Shown: positions 26,059-34,768 of the stretch, one piece after another | Numbering within the stretch: position 1 is the stretch's first letter | Layout of the letters: each line of letters opens with the position of its first letter | Source: Escherichia coli | GTDB taxonomy: Bacteria > Pseudomonadota > Gammaproteobacteria > Enterobacterales > Enterobacteriaceae | Assembly (NCBI RefSeq): GCF_003790525.1 | Contig: NZ_CP033635.1 | Length of the DNA stretch: 64,000 bases | Reading direction: 5' to 3' (one strand) | Made by a program: the position numbers and the translations under genes | The notes under the pieces: generated by a model | Database searches by the model: none | What the model saw: only the letters and a program-made list of their open reading frames with translations | What the model was told of the DNA's origin: nothing

Positions 26059-26204
26059 ACGTATTCGCTCAGGCAGGGGGCGCTGGTTGGGAACTCAACG
26101 TTGGCATGGTTTCGCTGCTCTTGTGTAGATGTGTTGCAGTTATTTGCGACATTCCGCCGGAGTAGCGGAACTATGGAAAACGGCAATTGGCGCTCTTATC
26201 CCTT

Positions 26205-26236
26205 AGCTTTGTAAGGCTTAATTTTGGTAGAATGGG
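26205..26236 (+). promoter_or_regulatory. Candidate sigma70 promoter with extended -10 (TGgTAGAAT) for the AT-rich two-gene module
   Basis: TGGTAGAAT at 26225-26233 seen directly; the -35 is weak (TTGTAA or TTAGCT with non-ideal spacing). Confidence 0.35.
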
Positions 26237-26264
26237 GAATCGTTTAACGGAAAAAAACAATCAG

Positions 26265-26759
26265 ATGATTTCTTTTCTATCCGATGAATTTGAGGAATTT
26301 CCGCAGGGAGATTTTTTAAATCATCTCTATAGGTTTTCGGTAGACCATCATCATTTTATCGTGATATTTAGCCCTATTGATATTAGCGATGCGGAGTACC
26401 ATCAATACCGTAGCGAGGAAGTTGGATTTGAAATCCCAACTAATTGTTTTGATGTGAAATTTGATAGGCAAGAAAACTTTGATAGTGGTAACTTTTACAT
26501 GCCCCCCGCCGCAACTGAATGCTCGAGGCGCAGACGCTTTACTGATGAACTCGCAGAGGCGCTAGCAACGATTATTGAAAAGCATTACATCATTTATCAT
26601 GCCAGGGCTTATCTTGCCATCGCAGAGAATGACAAGTTGAAACGTTACTATGACCGGATTTTACACAATGCCCCGGCTAATGTAGCATATAGAGTAATCA
26701 AAGATGTTGGAGAGGAGGAACGAGGTTATGCCATACAAACCGAATGTTTCCGAACTTAA
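26265..26759 (+). CDS. Hypothetical acidic protein (~164 aa from ATG 26265; alternative starts 26232 or 26187), no recognised domain
   Basis: Single long ORF in an AT-rich (~40% GC by eye) segment; MISFLSDEFEEFPQGDFLNHLYRF...; no motif I recognise; start ambiguous, weak RBS. Confidence 0.6.
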   Translation: MISFLSDEFEEFPQGDFLNHLYRFSVDHHHFIVIFSPIDISDAEYHQYRSEEVGFEIPTNCFDVKFDRQENFDSGNFYMPPAATECSRRRRFTDELAEALATIIEKHYIIYHARAYLAIAENDKLKRYYDRILHNAPANVAYRVIKDVGEEERGYAIQTECFRT

Positions 26760-26874
26760 GAAAATGACTGTTGCAGAGCGCAAGAAAGAAGCCATGCGCC
26801 AGCTTAAAGCATCCTTTGAGCGCGCCAGCATTGAAGGGACTTTGCATAAACGCTCTGCAAAGTCTGTTGCGTAA
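26728..26874 (+). CDS. Hypothetical small basic protein (48 aa), overlaps the 3' end of the preceding ORF by 32 nt in another frame
   Basis: Strong RBS GAGGAGG 7-13 nt upstream of ATG 26728; MPYKPNVSELKKMTVAERKKEAMRQLKASFERASIEGTLHKRSAKSVA; below the ORF-track length cutoff, found by reading. Confidence 0.5.
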   Translation: MPYKPNVSELKKMTVAERKKEAMRQLKASFERASIEGTLHKRSAKSVA

Positions 26875-26888
26875 TGAAAGATTTCAAT

Positions 26889-26914
26889 AACCCGCTGCGG
26901 CGGGCCTTTTTTTG
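26889..26914. terminator. Rho-independent terminator 15 nt after the small ORF (possibly bidirectional, facing the convergent VWA gene)
   Basis: cccgctgcggcgggcctttttttg: GC stem plus T7 run. Confidence 0.75.
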
Positions 26915-27095
26915 CCCTCAGAAAATCCCCTCTGACCTGCCTCAGGGATTATATACAACCTTCAGTTAATTAGCTGCGCACCATACGCGGCCCGAGCCTT
27001 ATCGCCTTGTTCAAATTCGACAATTCGTCGGCCAATTTCCCCGAACGTCGCGGTGCTAAGTACCGTATCCGTCCGGGCGTATCCGGCCAGAATTT

Positions 27096-28265
27096 TCAGG
27101 CGGTTTCTCTTGCTGTCACTACGCCATTTTGCGCAGCCCACAGATTCACATCTTCCTTACGAATGGCGGCGGCCATCATGCCGGGGAATAAATCTGGGGT
27201 ACAGGCAAAGGAGGGAATACCCATGGCGGCGAGTTTTCCTGCCAGTGACCGGTCGTAAAACGGCGCACCTTCATCGCTTAAGGCCAGCAGGGTAACCACC
27301 TGTACGCCGGACTGAATCAACTCACTGGCGCGTTGCAACAGATTGCGTTCCACCCCGCCTTCGTAGAGGTCGGAAATCAGCACCAGAATGGTATTGCGCG
27401 GATCGCGAATCAAAGACTGGCAGTAGCCCACCGCGCGGTTGATGTCGGTGCCGCCACCCAGCTGTACGCCAAACAGCAGCTCTACCGGATCGTCGAGCTT
27501 CTCTGTCATATCAACGACTGCGGTGTCGAAAACCACCAGATGCGTTTTTACCGCCGGGAGCGATGCCATTACTGCGCCAAAAATACTGGAATAGACCACC
27601 GAGGAGGCCATCGACCCACTCTGGTCGATACATAAAATGATCTCCTTTTGCGTGCGTTGAGACTTGCGCCCGTAGCCGATCAGCGTTTCAGGAACAATAC
27701 TTTTATACTCTTCCTGCCAGTGGCGCAGGTTGGCGCGAATGGTGCGCTGCCAGTCAATTTCCGCGTGGCGCGGGCGACGATTACGTACCGCACGATTAAG
27801 AGCGCCGCTTACCGCGCTACGCATTGGCTCTTCAAGCTGTTTCATCAATTGCTCGACAACTTTACGCACCACAAGCCTGGCGGTTTCTTTGGTTTTGGCC
27901 GGAATTACGCCATTCAGCGACATCAGCGTGGAGACCAGATGAACATCAGGCTGGACGTTTGCCAGCATCTCCGGCTCCAGCAACATACTGTGCAAATTAA
28001 GACGTTCAAAGGCGTCTTTTTGCATCACCTGAACCACAGAAGAAGGGAAATACTGGCGAATATCACCCAGCCAGCGAGCGACTTTGGGTGACGATCCACC
28101 CGTGCCGCCGCGTAATCCATGTTTACCCTCTGGCTGATACAGCGCCGCCAGCGCGGCATCAATCGCGGACTCTCTGGCATCCAGCGCCACGTTACAGGCA
28201 TTGTCGGCATCTTCTCCAAGGATCAGACGCCAGCGGCGCAGCCGTTCCATTTCGTTACTCGACAT
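27096..28265 (-). CDS. von Willebrand factor A (VWA) domain protein with complete MIDAS motif (389 aa); fifth gene of novel operon
   Basis: DQSGSM (DxSxS), GGGTD and LISDLYEGG motifs seen in the translation; start overlaps the upstream gene's stop by 11 nt. Confidence 0.85.
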   Translation of the reverse strand: MSSNEMERLRRWRLILGEDADNACNVALDARESAIDAALAALYQPEGKHGLRGGTGGSSPKVARWLGDIRQYFPSSVVQVMQKDAFERLNLHSMLLEPEMLANVQPDVHLVSTLMSLNGVIPAKTKETARLVVRKVVEQLMKQLEEPMRSAVSGALNRAVRNRRPRHAEIDWQRTIRANLRHWQEEYKSIVPETLIGYGRKSQRTQKEIILCIDQSGSMASSVVYSSIFGAVMASLPAVKTHLVVFDTAVVDMTEKLDDPVELLFGVQLGGGTDINRAVGYCQSLIRDPRNTILVLISDLYEGGVERNLLQRASELIQSGVQVVTLLALSDEGAPFYDRSLAGKLAAMGIPSFACTPDLFPGMMAAAIRKEDVNLWAAQNGVVTARETA

Positions 28266-30504
28266 GATTTTCCCTTTCGTGTGGTGGCAAAGCCAGAATG
28301 CGGCGCAGTAGCGGCAGCATTAACGCGGCACGCTGTTCATCCCATATACCGCTGGTCTCTTCTTGCTGCGCGACACGCTCGCCCTGCGCGGCGCGTTCGC
28401 CTAACTGGCGGCGTTCCGGGCTGGAAAAACGGCCGAATGTCCGCCGCAGCATCGGCAGGATCCGGGTGAAGTGATTGTCGTTCAGGCCGCTTAGCCAGGC
28501 ATCGATCAACTGCCATAATTCGCTATTGTGCAGTAGCACCATCGCGCTGTCGTTGAGGAAACCTTCCGCCCATGCGGCACTTTCCGCCGGGGGATTGGCT
28601 GGCGATAGCGCCAGGTTCATCAGCGTGCTGATCCGTTCTGTCGTTAACGTTTGCAGATCAAACAACAGGCGCGTCGCCGTTCCGCGAAGCAGCGCGTGTG
28701 CGGTACTGCCCTCTGCCAGCACCATCAACGCCTGCAACCAGCCCGCCAATAGATCTTCGTTATCCAGCAACCGCAGCGCGGCGTGGGCGTCGATAACTTT
28801 TTCTCTCATACTGGCGGCGCTGTCGTCGTTGAGCGCCGAACAGGCTCCGGGTAGGGCGATGGCGGCGCGCGGGGCGAGGCTCATCAGTACCTGCATTACC
28901 ATACCAGAGTCGGTCTGGCGCACGTTGCCGTAGCGGACAATCGCCACCAGTGGTGCCAGGGCTTCCAGCAACTGTTCGATATTGCCCTGAGTGGCAGCCA
29001 GTGATTCCAGTGTATTGGCGATGGGGGCAATCGCGGTCTGTAAATCGGCCAGTAGCACCTGTTGGATAAGCTTTGCCAGTTCCGGCAGCGTGCTGGCGTA
29101 TTGCGCCCTCACAATGGCATAGCGGGAGCTGGCCTGCTCAATGCTGTTACCCCAACGGCTGGCGGTAATGATGTTGATTGCCAGTGCCGGTTCCCAGCGC
29201 AGCGACCAGACTTCGTGGAACGTCCCTTTGCTGTTATTTCCTTGTCCAGCCAGACGGCCCCAGGAAATGTCGAGTAAGGTCAGGCGATGCAGTAAATGGC
29301 TACGCGCCAGATCGCCGGGTTTGCGCAGATCAAGATCCAGCACTTTTTCGCTGGCTTCTGCCTTCAGGCGCAGCGTTTTTTGCTGTTGCGTAATGTCGCG
29401 TTGGAGCGGCACGACGGGCGTATCATCCGGTACGCTTCCCAGCGCGTCGCCGACAATTAACTTCTGGCGAATCATCTGCATTGGCGCGCTTTCGCCCATA
29501 CACACTACGGTTTGCAGCGCTTCGCAAAGTTCGTCAAGCCCCGGCTGCGGGTGATGGCGCATAATCGCCAGCGTCTGCGCCAGCCGCGCCGCTTCGATAA
29601 TGTGGGCGCTGGAACAGTCGAGATCGGCTTCGCGAAACAGCCTTGCCGCGCGTGACAGCCAGCCGATATCGCGGTGAGAAGCGCCCTGATAACGCCACAG
29701 ATGATCGTACCATTCCGGTGACACCACCCCTGCGCCATAACCGCTGGCGCGGCTTAACGCCTCGTAGCTCCAGGGCGTCCAGGCTGCCGCGACCTTGCAC
29801 TTCGGCAAATTTTTCAGCAGTTCGTTATCATTCTTTGCGGGCGGCAGGTTTTCCAGCGCCGGAACGTGCCACGCACCGCAGACTACCGCGATGCGCGAGA
29901 AGCCCTCTTTTTTCGCCTGACGTAGCGTCTTGCGCATATACGCTTCACGCAGTTGATCTCTGGCTGAGTTTCGGGCTTCGGGAGTTGCCTGGCGTAGGGC
30001 AATCATCGCCTCGCGAATCGCCTCGAACAGAGACAAATCATCTTCGCGTTCCTCTACTCTGTGGCTCCACCAGCTTTCCCCATCGGTGTAACCGGCGGCG
30101 CGGCCCAGCCAGTCCAGCGGATCGCCGTCGGGACTGGCTTCAACGGCATCATCGTCATCGCTCTCTTTTTCGTCATCAAGCGCGAACTGATGACTGATGG
30201 GCAAGTCCATAAAGCGCACGGCGATATTTTGCTCAAAACCATAGCGCAGCGCCTGCCATTCCGGGGAGAACGCCGCAAAGGGGTAAAACGCGGCGTGATG
30301 TGAGTCGTCCGGGGCATAAATCAGTAGCGCGACCGGCGGTTGCATCTGTTCATGCTGCATAAAAGGCAGGATGGATTCGCCGTCGGGCGGCCCTTCCACC
30401 AGCAGGCAGTCGGGCTGTAGCGTCTCCAGCGCCTTTCGCAGGCTGCGCGCGCAGCCAGGGCCATGGTGACGGATGCCAAACAAATGAACGGTTTGTTCAG
30501 TCAT
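28255..30504 (-). CDS. Large hypothetical protein (749 aa), no motif recognised; fourth gene of novel operon
   Basis: Uninterrupted 2.25-kb ORF; AAGG RBS in the 17-nt gap after the AAA+ gene; acidic stretch DDEKESDDDDAVEASPDGD; helical Leu/Ala-rich C-terminal half. Confidence 0.8.
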   Translation of the reverse strand: MTEQTVHLFGIRHHGPGCARSLRKALETLQPDCLLVEGPPDGESILPFMQHEQMQPPVALLIYAPDDSHHAAFYPFAAFSPEWQALRYGFEQNIAVRFMDLPISHQFALDDEKESDDDDAVEASPDGDPLDWLGRAAGYTDGESWWSHRVEEREDDLSLFEAIREAMIALRQATPEARNSARDQLREAYMRKTLRQAKKEGFSRIAVVCGAWHVPALENLPPAKNDNELLKNLPKCKVAAAWTPWSYEALSRASGYGAGVVSPEWYDHLWRYQGASHRDIGWLSRAARLFREADLDCSSAHIIEAARLAQTLAIMRHHPQPGLDELCEALQTVVCMGESAPMQMIRQKLIVGDALGSVPDDTPVVPLQRDITQQQKTLRLKAEASEKVLDLDLRKPGDLARSHLLHRLTLLDISWGRLAGQGNNSKGTFHEVWSLRWEPALAINIITASRWGNSIEQASSRYAIVRAQYASTLPELAKLIQQVLLADLQTAIAPIANTLESLAATQGNIEQLLEALAPLVAIVRYGNVRQTDSGMVMQVLMSLAPRAAIALPGACSALNDDSAASMREKVIDAHAALRLLDNEDLLAGWLQALMVLAEGSTAHALLRGTATRLLFDLQTLTTERISTLMNLALSPANPPAESAAWAEGFLNDSAMVLLHNSELWQLIDAWLSGLNDNHFTRILPMLRRTFGRFSSPERRQLGERAAQGERVAQQEETSGIWDEQRAALMLPLLRRILALPPHERENHVE

Positions 30505-30521
30505 AGTGGTTGCCTTGCTGA

Positions 30522-31616
30522 TTACACAATTTCGCGGCAGGCGCGATAGAGATCGTTCCAGTCGCTGCGCTCTTTGACTATAGTTTCCAGATATTCACGC
30601 CATACCACGTCGTCCTGCACGGGATCTTTTACCACCGCGCCGATAAGGCTTGCGGCGATATCCCGCGGATGTAGCACGCCGTCGCCAAAATGGCCCGCCA
30701 GCGCCATACCGTTGTTGATAACGGAGATCGCCTCCGCGGTGCTGAGAGTACTGGTTGGCGACTTAATTTTCGTTTTGCCGTCAACCGTCAGGCCGTTTCG
30801 CAGTTCGCGGAAGATTTGCACGACTCGCTGGATCTCTTTAAGCGCTGGCGGTTCGGCAGGAAGTGCCAGCGCCTGACCCAGTTCGGCGACGCGGCGAGTG
30901 ACAATGTTAATCTCTTCTTCTTCGCTGGCGGGTACGGGCAAAATGACCGTGTTGAAACGACGTTTAAGTGCGGAAGAAAGCTCGTTAACGCCTTTATCCC
31001 GGTTGTTGGCGGTGGCGATAACGTTAAAGCCGCGCGTCGCCTGGACCTCTTCATTCAGTTCGGGGATAGGCAGCGTTTTTTCCGACAGGATCGTGATCAG
31101 CGTGTCCTGAACATCGGCAGGAATACGCGTCAGCTCTTCTACGCGGGCAATCTGCCCGCGTGCCATCGCCCGCATCAATGGGCTTTCTACCAGCGCCGAA
31201 CGTGACGGACCTTTAGAGAGCAACTCCGCGTAGTTCCAGCCATAACGCATTTGTTCTTCACCGGTGCCTGCGGTGCCCTGAATAATTAACGTTGAGTCGC
31301 CGCTGATGGCAGCCGCCAGATGTTCAGAGACCCAGGATTTCGCAGTGCCGGGTACGCCATACAACAGCAGTGCGCGATCGGTTGCCAGCGTGGCAACGGC
31401 GGTTTCGATAATCCGCCTGTTGCCGATATATTTCGGCGTGACCTCAAAACCATTTTCCAGTTGCCCGCCTAACAGATAAGTAGCAACGGACCACGGAGAA
31501 ATAGCCCAGTTTTCCGGGCGCGGATGAGTATCGTTTTTTTGCAGCTCATCCAGTTCTTCTGCAAATTGTTGTTCGGCATGTCGGCGTAAAACGGCGGCAG
31601 TAGCGGTGGAAGTCAT
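30522..31616 (-). CDS. MoxR-like AAA+ ATPase (364 aa from ATG 31616); third gene of novel operon
   Basis: Walker A LLLYGVPGTAKS (GxPGxAKS, MoxR-type), Walker B-like IARVEELTRIPADVQ, sensor-1 NVIATANN, Arg finger LKRRF; ATG overlaps the upstream stop as ATGA. Confidence 0.85.
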   Translation of the reverse strand: MTSTATAAVLRRHAEQQFAEELDELQKNDTHPRPENWAISPWSVATYLLGGQLENGFEVTPKYIGNRRIIETAVATLATDRALLLYGVPGTAKSWVSEHLAAAISGDSTLIIQGTAGTGEEQMRYGWNYAELLSKGPSRSALVESPLMRAMARGQIARVEELTRIPADVQDTLITILSEKTLPIPELNEEVQATRGFNVIATANNRDKGVNELSSALKRRFNTVILPVPASEEEEINIVTRRVAELGQALALPAEPPALKEIQRVVQIFRELRNGLTVDGKTKIKSPTSTLSTAEAISVINNGMALAGHFGDGVLHPRDIAASLIGAVVKDPVQDDVVWREYLETIVKERSDWNDLYRACREIV

Positions 31617-33217
31617 AAAGTAGTTTCTCCGACAAAAAACGAATGAAGTTGAATTCGGTGCGCCAGCGTGGCGCTCAGGGCAGTAAAGGCTGCCTCGCAA
31701 TAAGGCGTTTGTTGTGCGTCATGCGGCCACTTGTCAATGACATCATTGAGGACTTCGGGGGCCAGCAGGCAGGCGAAATCACTCATCACATGGCGCAGGG
31801 CGTAGTCAAAGCGCGCGGAATCATGTTTCACCCAACGGTGCAGCTCCGTGACCATTTGCTGGCTCAGGCGCAGGCTAAAGAGCGACGCATCCAGCGGTAA
31901 CAGGGCGATGTAGCGTTGTAAATGTTCGCCGCCCATTACCGAGAACAGTAACGTCAACACTGGCTCGTGTTCTTCTACGGGCAGGCATTGCAGAAGCTCA
32001 AAGGCGTTAATCTTCACGCCAGCAGGGGAATGAATGCTTATTCCGACGGGGAGTAGGGCGAGGAATGCCTGCGCCCACTGTGGATTTTTTTCGCGCAGGA
32101 CGGCGTGATACCAGGCGCGCAGTAGCGCCTCCTGCCAGTCGGTTTTCCCGGCCCAGCGCAGCAGTTCAACGGGGGTAGCCTGCAGTTGCGTTTGCCACCA
32201 GTCGAGCGGAACCGCTGCAACTATCTGATACAGCCACCATGCGCGCTGGCCCAACTTTTCGCCTTTGGGCTTAGTTTCTTCCAGCGCATCGGCCTTCCAC
32301 TCTGGTAAGAACGCCTCCGGGGCATCAAGGGCGACGCGCAGCATTTTTTCTTTGCCGGATAAGCCTTTTAGCCTTTCAAGTAAGGTCTCAGGAGCGGGGG
32401 ATGAACTGAGCAACGGCGCTAACCGAGACTTCATGCGCGAGATCCAGGCGCTTTCCGGCAGACAACACAGTAACCGTGCCGCAGTTTGCCGCACCTCTTT
32501 GCTGCGATCGGATAATGTCTGTTCCAGAAAGGCTTCGTCGTGTTGGGAGATCCCCACTTCCAGCACAGCCAGCAGCTGTGCGCGTTCGCGGGCATCCAGC
32601 GAACTCATCTCCTGCGCCAGCCGATCGCGACCCTGTTCCGGGGCGCGAATGCGCATTTGCGTCAGATATTGCAGACGCTGTTCGGACGTGCCGTGCAGCC
32701 ACATTTCTTCATCCAGCGGAGCGTCAGTGGAGGCGAGAACATAGCCCCAATCGGCGTTGATTTGCGCCAGCCAGCACCCGCGAGCGCCCAGAACATTGGA
32801 CAGGATGCCGCGTAGAGATGGCTTTTGCGCTCCATAATTCAGCAATGCTGGTAACAGCAGGGGCGGAGGAAGAAGTTGACGACGGACCAATAGATCAAGC
32901 GCCGACCACAGCAACCGCGGCGGTCCTTCTGACAGCAGCAGATGCAGCAGTCCCGCAAAAGCCGGGTTGTTTATTGGCTCGGCATTTTCTTTATCGATTT
33001 CCGGCAGCGGTGCGGGGTCAATCGCCTGCGGCACCCAGCCAGCCAGATGGCAGAGCGCCAGAACGCCCGCCGAGCGCAGTAGCTGTTGCTCTGCGGATGT
33101 GTTATTCGCCAGTTCAGACAGTAACAGCCCAATCTCACTTTGCGACGCCGACGGTGTAAACGCTTTTTTGTCTGTGCCGAGTAGCGCTGTGCGGGTTAAA
33201 TTTTGCCATTCGTTCAT
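31613..33217 (-). CDS. Hypothetical alpha-helical Leu-rich protein (534 aa from ATG 33217; 541 aa if 33238); second gene of novel operon
   Basis: Long ORF; ATG at 33217 forms an ATGA overlap with the SWIM gene stop; Leu/Ala/Trp-rich repeat-like sequence; no catalytic motif recognised. Confidence 0.8.
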   Translation of the reverse strand: MNEWQNLTRTALLGTDKKAFTPSASQSEIGLLLSELANNTSAEQQLLRSAGVLALCHLAGWVPQAIDPAPLPEIDKENAEPINNPAFAGLLHLLLSEGPPRLLWSALDLLVRRQLLPPPLLLPALLNYGAQKPSLRGILSNVLGARGCWLAQINADWGYVLASTDAPLDEEMWLHGTSEQRLQYLTQMRIRAPEQGRDRLAQEMSSLDARERAQLLAVLEVGISQHDEAFLEQTLSDRSKEVRQTAARLLCCLPESAWISRMKSRLAPLLSSSPAPETLLERLKGLSGKEKMLRVALDAPEAFLPEWKADALEETKPKGEKLGQRAWWLYQIVAAVPLDWWQTQLQATPVELLRWAGKTDWQEALLRAWYHAVLREKNPQWAQAFLALLPVGISIHSPAGVKINAFELLQCLPVEEHEPVLTLLFSVMGGEHLQRYIALLPLDASLFSLRLSQQMVTELHRWVKHDSARFDYALRHVMSDFACLLAPEVLNDVIDKWPHDAQQTPYCEAAFTALSATLAHRIQLHSFFVGETTL

Positions 33218-34536
33218 TGTGCGCCTCCGGTTGCCCAAATGACGCTACCGGCAAGCCAGGCGCTACAGGGCGTCAGCTGCTGACCATCCCATTCCCCCAT
33301 TAGCATAAACGGCGCGCCGCCGCTGGCCGCCAGTAACCGCCAACCCTCGTCCGACGACAGGTGCGTCGGTAAGTGCTGGCCCTGTGTCGAGACGAATCGC
33401 CAGCCGCTCTCGTGCGGGTAAATCAATATTTCGCTTACTCGCAGCGGCAGAGGCCATTGCCAGGGATTCGCGCTAAGCCGCTGCGCCATGTCATGCAGCG
33501 CGTCCGGGAGGGGTAATTCTGCAAGCGGGAATCTTTCACCGCGGGTAAACGGCTCCACAACCCGCGCCCGTAGCGGTGATGCGCCAGGGAAAAAGGCAAG
33601 CGCGCCCTGGCAGACTTGCCCGGTGATAAAGTGCTGGGGAAAGTTTTTACTACCGTGTGAATAGTCCAGCAGTAGCGCGGTGCGGTGGCTCTTTTCTCCG
33701 TACAGCCAGACCCGGCGTCGCCACAGATTATTCCCTTCTTGCGCGCTTTGACCTAAGACCTGCCAGTTATCGAGGCAGGTTAATCCGTCAGTGACGTCGT
33801 GTTTATCCGGGGGTATTCCCAATGCCGCATGGAGATCGCTAAGTTGTGCCGGGGATAACATTTGTTGCTGGCGCCAGGCGTCAATAATCAGCTGTAGCTG
33901 CCCCAGTTCTTTGCACAGGCTCGATGGCCATACCTCGGCGGTAGTAAAATGAGTGGTCAGATTGTTCAGGCGAGCGGCAATTCCCGGTAGTTGGGCGTCG
34001 ACCATGCGGGCGGCGATCCCGGCAAAAGGCAACTGTTGTGCAGAGATCTGCGCCAGACCGTGGCGGATCAGGTCGTGCATCCACTGTTCGAGGAAATCCA
34101 GCCCCGCCGTCATTTTTTGGTTGCGTGCCGCTTCCCGTTTGGCGGCAGCCTGCGGGTCGGCAGCTTTTGCCTCAGCCTGCTCTTTCTTCTCTTCTTTGCG
34201 AACCGCCCGCTGCTGGCGCGAGGTTAGCCACTCGCTTACCCATTCCGGCGGCTCGCCAGCGGTGAAACTTGCGGTGTGTTGCACCTGGAGAAAAAGCAAC
34301 GCAAGGCTATGTTTACAGGGGAATTTACGGCTGGGGCAGGAACATTTACAGGCCAGATCCTGTCTGTCGATTCGTACCTGATAAGGGCGGGAGCCGCTAC
34401 CTTTACACTCTCCCCAGAAGGCAGCCTCGCTATATCCGAGCGTCGGCCATTTTGCGGGAGCAACCAGGCCACGAGCCGCTTTAACCGAGGCGTCATCGGG
34501 CGCCAGGGCTTGCACTGATTCAACGGTCAGTTCCAT
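33214..34536 (-). CDS. SWIM zinc-finger domain protein (440 aa); first gene of novel operon
   Basis: CxCxnCxH signature at residues 63-76 (ACKCSCPSRKFPCKHSLALLF); first ORF downstream of gltD on the same strand. Confidence 0.85.
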   Translation of the reverse strand: MELTVESVQALAPDDASVKAARGLVAPAKWPTLGYSEAAFWGECKGSGSRPYQVRIDRQDLACKCSCPSRKFPCKHSLALLFLQVQHTASFTAGEPPEWVSEWLTSRQQRAVRKEEKKEQAEAKAADPQAAAKREAARNQKMTAGLDFLEQWMHDLIRHGLAQISAQQLPFAGIAARMVDAQLPGIAARLNNLTTHFTTAEVWPSSLCKELGQLQLIIDAWRQQQMLSPAQLSDLHAALGIPPDKHDVTDGLTCLDNWQVLGQSAQEGNNLWRRRVWLYGEKSHRTALLLDYSHGSKNFPQHFITGQVCQGALAFFPGASPLRARVVEPFTRGERFPLAELPLPDALHDMAQRLSANPWQWPLPLRVSEILIYPHESGWRFVSTQGQHLPTHLSSDEGWRLLAASGGAPFMLMGEWDGQQLTPCSAWLAGSVIWATGGAQ

Positions 34537-34649
34537 TACAATTCTCTATTGGCGTGGGGAAATCGATGGGGTCAAGGAGGCGTTAAGCAAAGCAGGAGGA
34601 GACTGTTTTCCGTAACAGCGTATTGCGCGTCCATCGCAAATTTGTAGTG

Positions 34650-34679
34650 AGTATAGCGGGCGGTAAATTCAGGAAACAA
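34650..34679 (-). promoter_or_regulatory. Candidate sigma70 promoter for the five-gene operon (-35 TTGTTT, 18-bp spacer, -10 TATACT on minus strand)
   Basis: Hexamers read on the reverse complement ~115-140 nt upstream of the SWIM start codon; heuristic only. Confidence 0.3.
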
Positions 34680-34721
34680 TGGCGGATAGCGGAAAGTGTA
34701 GTTTTTCGGAAAAAGATAACT

Positions 34722-34760
34722 TTATCCCGTGTAACCCGTTTTAAGCGGGCTACACGGGAG
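34722..34760 (-). terminator. Hairpin downstream of gltD (candidate terminator or attenuator)
   Basis: Inverted repeat cccgtgtaacccg / cgggctacacggg 10-45 nt after the gltD stop; the trailing U-tract on the minus strand is interrupted. Confidence 0.4.
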
Positions 34761-34768
34761 GCTGCAAT

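Follow-up and report, generated by a model that had tools for sequence, protein, structure and literature searches.

YehL is one of seven MoxR subfamilies that have been listed (PMC3893208), and takes its name from the YehL protein of Escherichia coli K-12, where yehL and yehM are silenced by H-NS (PMC3686432). In the literature on YehL, yehM, yehP, DUF5682, DUF5691 and the combination of MoxR, vWA and SWIM proteins we found only the subfamily listing and the H-NS silencing, and no functional study. For the MoxR protein NorQ and its partner NorD there are structures, in which a finger of the VWA protein is inserted into the MoxR pore and the MIDAS (a metal ion-dependent adhesion site) is proposed to bind the target (PMC13036017). 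Here we describe a YehL-type ATPase encoded in a stretch of 64,000 nucleotides from E. coli (contig NZ_CP033635.1 of RefSeq assembly GCF_003790525.1), all of which we refer to as the window. The window is 100% identical to the chromosome of E. coli SMS-3-5 (NC_010498.1), and in RefSeq the product, WP_000204707.1, is annotated as 'ATP-binding protein'. The acidic pair of its Walker B motif is Glu-Glu, and this is typical of the whole subfamily.

The Walker B Asp holds Mg2+-bound waters. A survey of the catalytic sites of more than 3000 P-loop nucleoside triphosphatases (NTPases) describes this residue as 'almost strictly conserved', assigns to it a hydrogen bond to the Ser/Thr of Walker A and a part in proton handling, and finds Glu in its role 'only in several cases', such as the VirB/PilT-like ATPases (PMC9599734). 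NorQ has a canonical Walker B, of which the mutant is E109Q (PMC13036017), and Asp-Glu is also used by the other MoxR-class proteins compared here, RavA and four of the five matched modules of Midasin.

The Walker B site and its conservation

The ATPase gene is an intact open reading frame of 364 codons on the minus strand (30522-31616), for which the coordinates of the RefSeq coding sequence are identical, and its ATG shares bases with the upstream gene's stop codon (ATGA). An earlier note on this DNA had recognised a MoxR-like AAA+ ATPase from the motifs GVPGTAKS, IARVEELTR, NVIATANN and LKRRF. All four are present in the 364-residue translation, the first being a P-loop of the G-x-x-G-x-[GA]-K-[ST] type, and the classification holds up well, with a match to Pfam AAA_5 at 1.6e-38, a predicted fold resembling NorQ and CbbQ and a VWA/MIDAS gene in the same operon. 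The matches to AAA_3 and bpMoxR were weak, the latter also partial (E 2.9e-4 over 49 residues), and in NCBIfam the ATPase matched only MadB and GvpN, both far below cutoff. A structure predicted with AlphaFold2 from a 28-sequence alignment (mean predicted local distance difference test score 92.6, predicted template modelling (TM) score 0.89) gave NorQ (9qh4, 9qh6, 9qhd) and CbbQ (6l1q, 5c3c) as the top Foldseek matches, with E values of 1e-12 to 1e-9 and target-normalised TM scores of 0.75-0.82; the NorQ match has an E value of 1e-12 and a TM score of 0.8 on the target, with MCM and dynein ranking lower. Pairs of strands in the model at residues 111-113/125-127 and 181-184/189-192 form the predicted helix-2 and pre-sensor-1 beta-hairpins. 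Midasin is the nearest relative of solved structure when sequence profiles are compared (2.5e-31), followed by the MoxR protein 2r44 (7e-9). The protein is 41% identical to K-12 YehL (b2119) over its full length (350 residues, BLASTP E 2e-78) and on the strength of this we assign it to the YehL subfamily of the MoxR-class AAA+ ATPases. The earlier note had allowed that it might lie outside the MoxR clade; Pfam, the fold and the homology to YehL all place it inside.

The Glu-Glu pair occupies the Walker B position of this ATPase. As the protein is too distant from RavA for BLASTP to align the Walker B motifs a profile alignment was needed, and with hhalign the family profile pairs IARVEEL with IVFLDEI of E. 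coli RavA. When the sequence was compared with those of the PDB using phmmer, five AAA modules of Midasin were matched around the site; in the first (PDB 6i27_A, residues ~325-418) VEE falls opposite IED, and in the remaining four opposite LDE. In the AlphaFold2 model a strand runs from residue 156 to residue 160, with Glu160 (GAA, 31137-31139) as its last residue and Glu161 (GAG, 31134-31136) next, so that in the standard geometry Glu160 is at the position of the usual Walker B Asp and Glu161 at that of the catalytic Glu. Measured against the pattern of a hydrophobic strand followed by Asp-Glu (hhhhDE), the position and Glu161 are present, the Asp is replaced with Glu160, and the residue at -2 is an arginine rather than hydrophobic; no other strand with this pattern was found elsewhere in the AAA core of the ATPase. 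The RavA alignment, the Midasin alignment and the structure model thus all put Walker B at Glu160-Glu161, as the earlier note had read it, and rule out a standard Asp-Glu motif at some other place in the protein.

The earlier note had also suggested that the Glu-Glu pair could be a natural variant affecting hydrolysis kinetics, and proposed an alignment with MoxR/RavA/YehL-type ATPases. Such alignments do not bear out a variant of this one protein, since the pair is also found in K-12 YehL, which reads GKIVRFEEITR at the site in the BLASTP alignment, and in relatives from many bacterial groups. In 119 of the 120 cluster representatives nearest to the protein (78-100% identity) a motif search found the site, which reads x-E-E-L-T-R in all 119, and the named sources of close homologues with Glu-Glu include Enterobacteriaceae, Pseudomonas, Roseateles, Bilophila, Verrucomicrobium and Contendobacter. 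When the search was widened to 1.84 billion cluster representatives (50% identity), 2444 matched at E<=0.001, 329 of them at E<=1e-30. The motif was counted in the best 150 of the 2444, all of them YehL-like; 124 of these cover the site, and 116 of the 124 have Glu-Glu. Four of the remaining eight are frameshifted gene calls and two are fragments, leaving P0137 and P0187. P0137 reads Glu-Ala at Walker B, with degeneration of sensor-1 and the arginine pair accompanying the loss of Glu161, and by its sequence looks genuinely decayed. In L012 2200-6610 the P0137 gene adjoins one for a DUF5682 protein of 1097 residues, and the contig also encodes a TLC-type ATP/ADP translocase; the host may be an intracellular bacterium in which this copy is decaying. 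P0187 is an intact-looking singleton with Asp-Glu, which keeps Arg158 and all the other motifs. No covariation accompanying the Asp is visible in P0187, for which a single 1.3-kb contig offers no gene context.

Within the 28-sequence alignment, which extends down to 38% identity, Lys93, Arg158, Glu160, Glu161, Arg164, Gln170, Asp171, Asn204, Arg219 and Arg220 are invariant. Arg158 (codon 31143-31145, minus strand) is conserved in 122 of 125 representatives, within a strand that is hydrophobic in RavA and Midasin, and as it is on one strand with Glu160 the two side chains should face the same side. Asp is a single third-position nucleotide change away from the GAA codon of Glu160, yet occurs in just one of the 124 representatives, which argues that Glu specifically is selected at this position. 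The ATPase of E. coli is 80-85% identical to those of Verrucomicrobium and Bilophila and 68-71% identical to actinobacterial, Deinococcus and Hymenobacter copies, while at the DNA level at least 8 complete E. coli genomes have the gene with 100% identity, and of the 33 genomes in which it is present 28 match it at 99% or more. This identity between complete genomes, and the occurrence of Glu-Glu throughout the family, rule out a private mutation or a sequencing error.

From these comparisons the Walker B motif of the YehL subfamily can be written as h-h-R-h-E-E-h-[TS]-R, in which Glu-Glu is a fixed and selected signature of the lineage, and not a peculiarity of this E. coli copy. Rare among the P-loop NTPases overall, the pair is the norm in the YehL subfamily. 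We found no published comment on it, though the original subfamily paper was outside our search and may have noticed it before. A large and strongly conserved subfamily with Glu fixed at a nearly universal Asp provides a natural test case for the role of that residue, and the motif is a handy sequence signature by which YehL-type ATPases can be recognised.

The operon, its products and their distribution

The ATPase gene is the third in a minus-strand operon of five, which runs SWIM, DUF5691, ATPase, DUF5682, VWA (Table 1); at each junction the genes overlap by 4 or 11 nucleotides or are separated by a gap of 17. A scan of the operon for promoters and terminators gave nothing above the shuffled background. 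Neither NCBIfam nor sequence searches of the PDB returned anything for the four neighbours of the ATPase. The VWA protein (27096-28265) matches VWA_CoxE at 3.6e-52 with the D-x-S-x-S of its MIDAS intact, and is presumed to be the partner of the ATPase. The linkage between the two genes is kept in all the examined loci that extend far enough.

Table 1. Features of the ATPase gene, its operon and the surrounding strain-variable segment, in window coordinates.
Feature	Position	Strand	Evidence or remarks
ATPase coding sequence, YehL-subfamily MoxR AAA+, 364 residues, WP_000204707.1	30522..31616	-	RefSeq, Pfam, BLASTP, structure model
Walker A / P-loop GVPGTAKS, residues 87-94	31335..31358	-	G87, P89, G90 and K93 invariant; aligned RavA reads GPPGIAKS
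Walker B strand I156-A-R-V-E160-E161 (IARVEELTR, residues 156-164)	31134..31151	-	E160 at the usual Asp, E161 catalytic Glu, R158 invariant
Sensor-1 region NVIATANN, residues 198-205	31002..31025	-	Strand 198-204 (model); I200, A201, T202 and N204 invariant
Arginine-finger region LKRRF, residues 217-221	30954..30968	-	R219 and R220 invariant; aligned Midasin reads LRNRF
SWIM zinc-finger protein, 440 residues, first gene of the operon	33214..34536	-	C-x-C...C-x-H at about residues 63-76
DUF5691 protein, 534 residues from the RefSeq start	31613..33217	-	Fastest-evolving member of the module
DUF5682 protein, 749 residues, YehM homologue (27% identity)	28255..30504	-	Pfam, BLASTP, structure model
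VWA_CoxE-type VWA protein, 389 residues, YehP homologue (38% identity)	27096..28265	-	MIDAS D214-x-S-x-S
Strain-variable 8.7-kb segment between nanQ and gltD	26068..34768	.	Replaces K-12 gltF-yhcA-yhcD-yhcE-yhcF-yhcG
yhcG (DUF1016) remnant, 86 bp	26969-27054		Comparison with K-12

The structure model of the DUF5682 protein gives some indication of what it may do. Its N-terminal part is predicted to have a core fold with a parallel beta-sheet that is common to TraB, ChaN, HopBA1 and Ere-like proteins, while many alpha-solenoid proteins are structural matches for the C-terminal two-thirds. ChaN, HopBA1 and the Ere-family protein Bcr135 are members of the TIKI superfamily and have a common catalytic set of two His and two Glu residues (PMC6254334). 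The invariant residues of DUF5682 include Arg12-His13-His14, Glu37, Arg186-Glu187 and His213. In an hhalign comparison with E. coli YbaP, of the TraB family, the GxxH and VE motifs align, but not significantly (E 0.038, probability 1.4%), and Pfam gave no TraB match for the protein. On the basis of the modelled fold the N-terminal domain of DUF5682/YehM is plausibly a TIKI/TraB-like hydrolase, a prediction which the family gains from this analysis.

Few strains carry the ATPase gene, only 33 among 5426 complete E. coli genomes, and it lies in a segment of the chromosome that differs between strains. Two open reading frames on the plus strand, annotated in RefSeq as hypothetical proteins of 190 and 48 residues (26187-26759 and 26728-26874), lie between nanQ and the yhcG remnant; they are part of the strain-variable segment and have no NCBIfam match. 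Outside E. coli the same order of the five genes is seen in Verrucomicrobium spinosum (L004 5954-13751) and Bilophila (L005 6003-14163), though the first gene in V. spinosum, whose product is homologous to the SWIM protein (43% identity), has no SWIM Pfam match on record. The five products diverge to very different extents: between E. coli and V. spinosum identity is 81% for the ATPase, 68% for the VWA protein, 48% for DUF5682, 43% for the SWIM protein and 31% for DUF5691, and when Bilophila is included the ranges are 81-85%, 68-82%, 48-59%, 43-50% and 31-37%, respectively. Such a high identity of the ATPase across phyla points to strong constraint, and probably reflects horizontal transfer. 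Homologues of the ATPase (60-71% identity) also occur in Deinococcus, Hymenobacter, Rhizobium, Methylosinus, Nonomuraea and Nocardia, on records of large plasmids or chromids.

More distant relatives on two metagenomic contigs keep a core of ATPase, DUF5682 and VWA. In one distant lineage (L006 3204-15436; L007) DUF5682 and VWA are fused into a single protein of 1037 residues, and genes for a DUF4132 protein and a protein of 1614 residues lie upstream, just as yehI, which encodes a DUF4132 protein, lies upstream of yehL in K-12. The DUF4132 proteins may be alternative accessory subunits. No conserved client gene accompanies the module in the loci compared.

Two PHROG profiles, phrog_31592 (3e-71) and phrog_30700 (5e-35), have matches in the VWA and DUF5682 proteins (27096-30504). 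An origin of the module in phage was rejected, since the ATPase homologue is carried by only one 'phage' record, the unannotated 14-kb MT835988.1, and the apparent tie to phage probably stems from the way in which prophages or contigs are classified.

How the ATPase might work

We consider it likely that this protein is a catalytically competent MoxR ATPase of the YehL subfamily, with Glu-Glu as a fixed signature, that assembles as a hexamer and engages the VWA protein. Lys93, Asn204, the arginine pair and Glu161 are all invariant, which speaks for an active site that works and is not crippled. In such a site Glu160 would take over from the Walker B Asp, with Glu161 as the catalytic base. By analogy with NorQ-NorD, CbbQ-CbbO and Rea1/Midasin the ATPase would form a hexameric ring and engage the co-encoded VWA/MIDAS protein, and ATP hydrolysis would serve to remodel a partner held at the MIDAS. 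That partner is probably DUF5682, because DUF5682 and VWA occur as a natural fusion. As clients or co-factors the most probable candidates are the remaining products of the operon, namely DUF5682, DUF5691 and the SWIM protein, of which the fast-evolving SWIM and DUF5691 proteins might be specificity or scaffold subunits. We infer the ATPase activity and the hexamer, as we do the interaction with VWA, the client and any kinetic effect of Glu160. Two points weigh against this reading. The literature searched holds no biochemical data on any protein of the YehL subfamily, and Arg158 lies within a strand that is normally hydrophobic, so that the site could work differently from a canonical one.

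A possible alternative, to which we give distinctly less weight, is that the Glu-Glu pair tunes the motor. The longer side chain of Glu160 would loosen the geometry around Mg2+ and Ser94, and basal hydrolysis would be slow until the VWA protein, DUF5682 or a client closed the site. YehL-type ATPases would then be gated switches and not constitutive motors, which widens to the subfamily the regulation or attenuation that the earlier note had suggested for this protein. The strict preference for Glu despite an Asp codon one nucleotide away would suit such a role, as would the near universality of the Asp in other P-loop NTPases (PMC9599734) and the subfamily-specific neighbours Arg158, Thr163 and Arg164, which are invariant along with it. 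MoxR ATPases are in general slow and modulated by their partners, NorQ turning over at about 13 per min per hexamer, a rate altered by NorD (PMC13036017). Replacement of Asp with Glu is, however, chemically conservative, and P0187, with its Asp, keeps Arg158 and every other motif, giving no sign of a compensatory pattern. A gated motor, kept slow by Glu160 together with Arg158, is compatible with all of the data and is the main rival to the reading preferred above; the understanding of AAA+ mechanism is unchanged unless Glu160 turns out to gate activity.

More doubtful is an extension of this idea to the whole module, as a self-contained and mobile conflict or stress machine in which the ATPase and VWA proteins gate a TIKI/TraB-like hydrolase, the N-terminal domain of DUF5682, with SWIM and DUF5691 or DUF4132 proteins as accessories, and Glu160 and Arg158 keep the motor off until there is a trigger. 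If true, a conflict or stress-response system of a new kind would stand beside the MoxR-vWA ternary systems.

It seems improbable that the site is degenerate and the protein a pseudo-ATPase, which would bind nucleotide without hydrolysing it and serve only as a scaffold. Other P-loop NTPases usually lose their activity when the Walker B Asp is replaced (PMC9599734), and the module of Midasin with Glu at this position (IED) also lacks the Glu at the next, catalytic position. Here, however, the Walker A Lys, Glu161, the sensor-1 Asn and both arginines are invariant, and identity across groups is high, from Verrucomicrobium and Bilophila to the actinobacterial, Deinococcus and Hymenobacter copies. 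P0137 moreover indicates what inactivation looks like in this family, namely loss of Glu161, sensor-1 and the arginine pair together.

That the true Walker B lies elsewhere, or that Glu-Glu is a sequencing error or a mutation of the strain, can be dismissed, as we found no point in its favour, the position is the same in two independent alignments and in the model, the DNA is identical in at least 8 complete genomes and the pair is family-wide.

Comparison with known systems

The combination of a MoxR protein and a CoxE-type vWA protein with extra components in mobile, sporadic operons is also found in the MoxR-vWA ternary conflict systems (PMC7159879), and the TAKS variant of the P-loop is common to some of these. 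Unlike them, this operon has no VMAP, iSTAND, FtsH or beta-propeller component, the neighbours being SWIM, DUF5691 and DUF5682, and the paper describing those systems makes no mention of YehL or SWIM (Kaur et al, 2020, PMC7159879). A search of PADLOC-DB 2.0 found no known defence protein in the operon; the ATPase gave a marginal match to the P-loop of IetA (E 1e-3) and the other four proteins none. As judged by these comparisons the ATPase falls outside both the MoxR-vWA ternary conflict systems and the defence systems of PADLOC.

In fold the best solved counterparts are NorQ/NorD and CbbQ/CbbO, of the CGN subfamily, which likewise have a single AAA+ module, with hairpins predicted in helix 2 and before sensor 1, and a VWA partner with a MIDAS. 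They differ in that Walker B is canonical in NorQ and CbbQ, whose identity to the ATPase here is only 16-20%, and in that the ATPase has about 65 additional residues at the N-terminus and a longer lid. The NorQD and CbbQO pairs are also linked to known clients, cNOR and Rubisco, whereas this module has no conserved client gene. Midasin/Rea1 is the closest solved protein by sequence, and similarly belongs to AAA_5, has a MIDAS/VWA domain inserted at the ring and has Glu at the Walker B Asp in its first AAA module (IED). It is, however, a eukaryotic giant of six concatenated modules, with Asp-Glu in the other four that were matched, and its client is the pre-60S ribosome.

The closest likeness is to the YehL system of K-12 itself, which has the R-x-E-E-x-T-R Walker B, the YehM/DUF5682 and YehP/VWA_CoxE partners and a SWIM-domain protein in the operon. 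The gene order is different, SWIM-DUF5691-ATPase-DUF5682-VWA here and yehL-M-P-Q in K-12, and although a SWIM domain is common to both, the SWIM and DUF5691 proteins of this operon have no BLASTP similarity to YehQ. The ATPase belongs to a distinct, divergent paralogous lineage, at another site on the chromosome and on a sporadic island. The practical gain lies mostly in annotation, as what RefSeq lists as an 'ATP-binding protein' among DUF neighbours can be given a name: a second and divergent YehLMPQ-like module, beside gltD, of a different type from the K-12 yehLMPQ operon.

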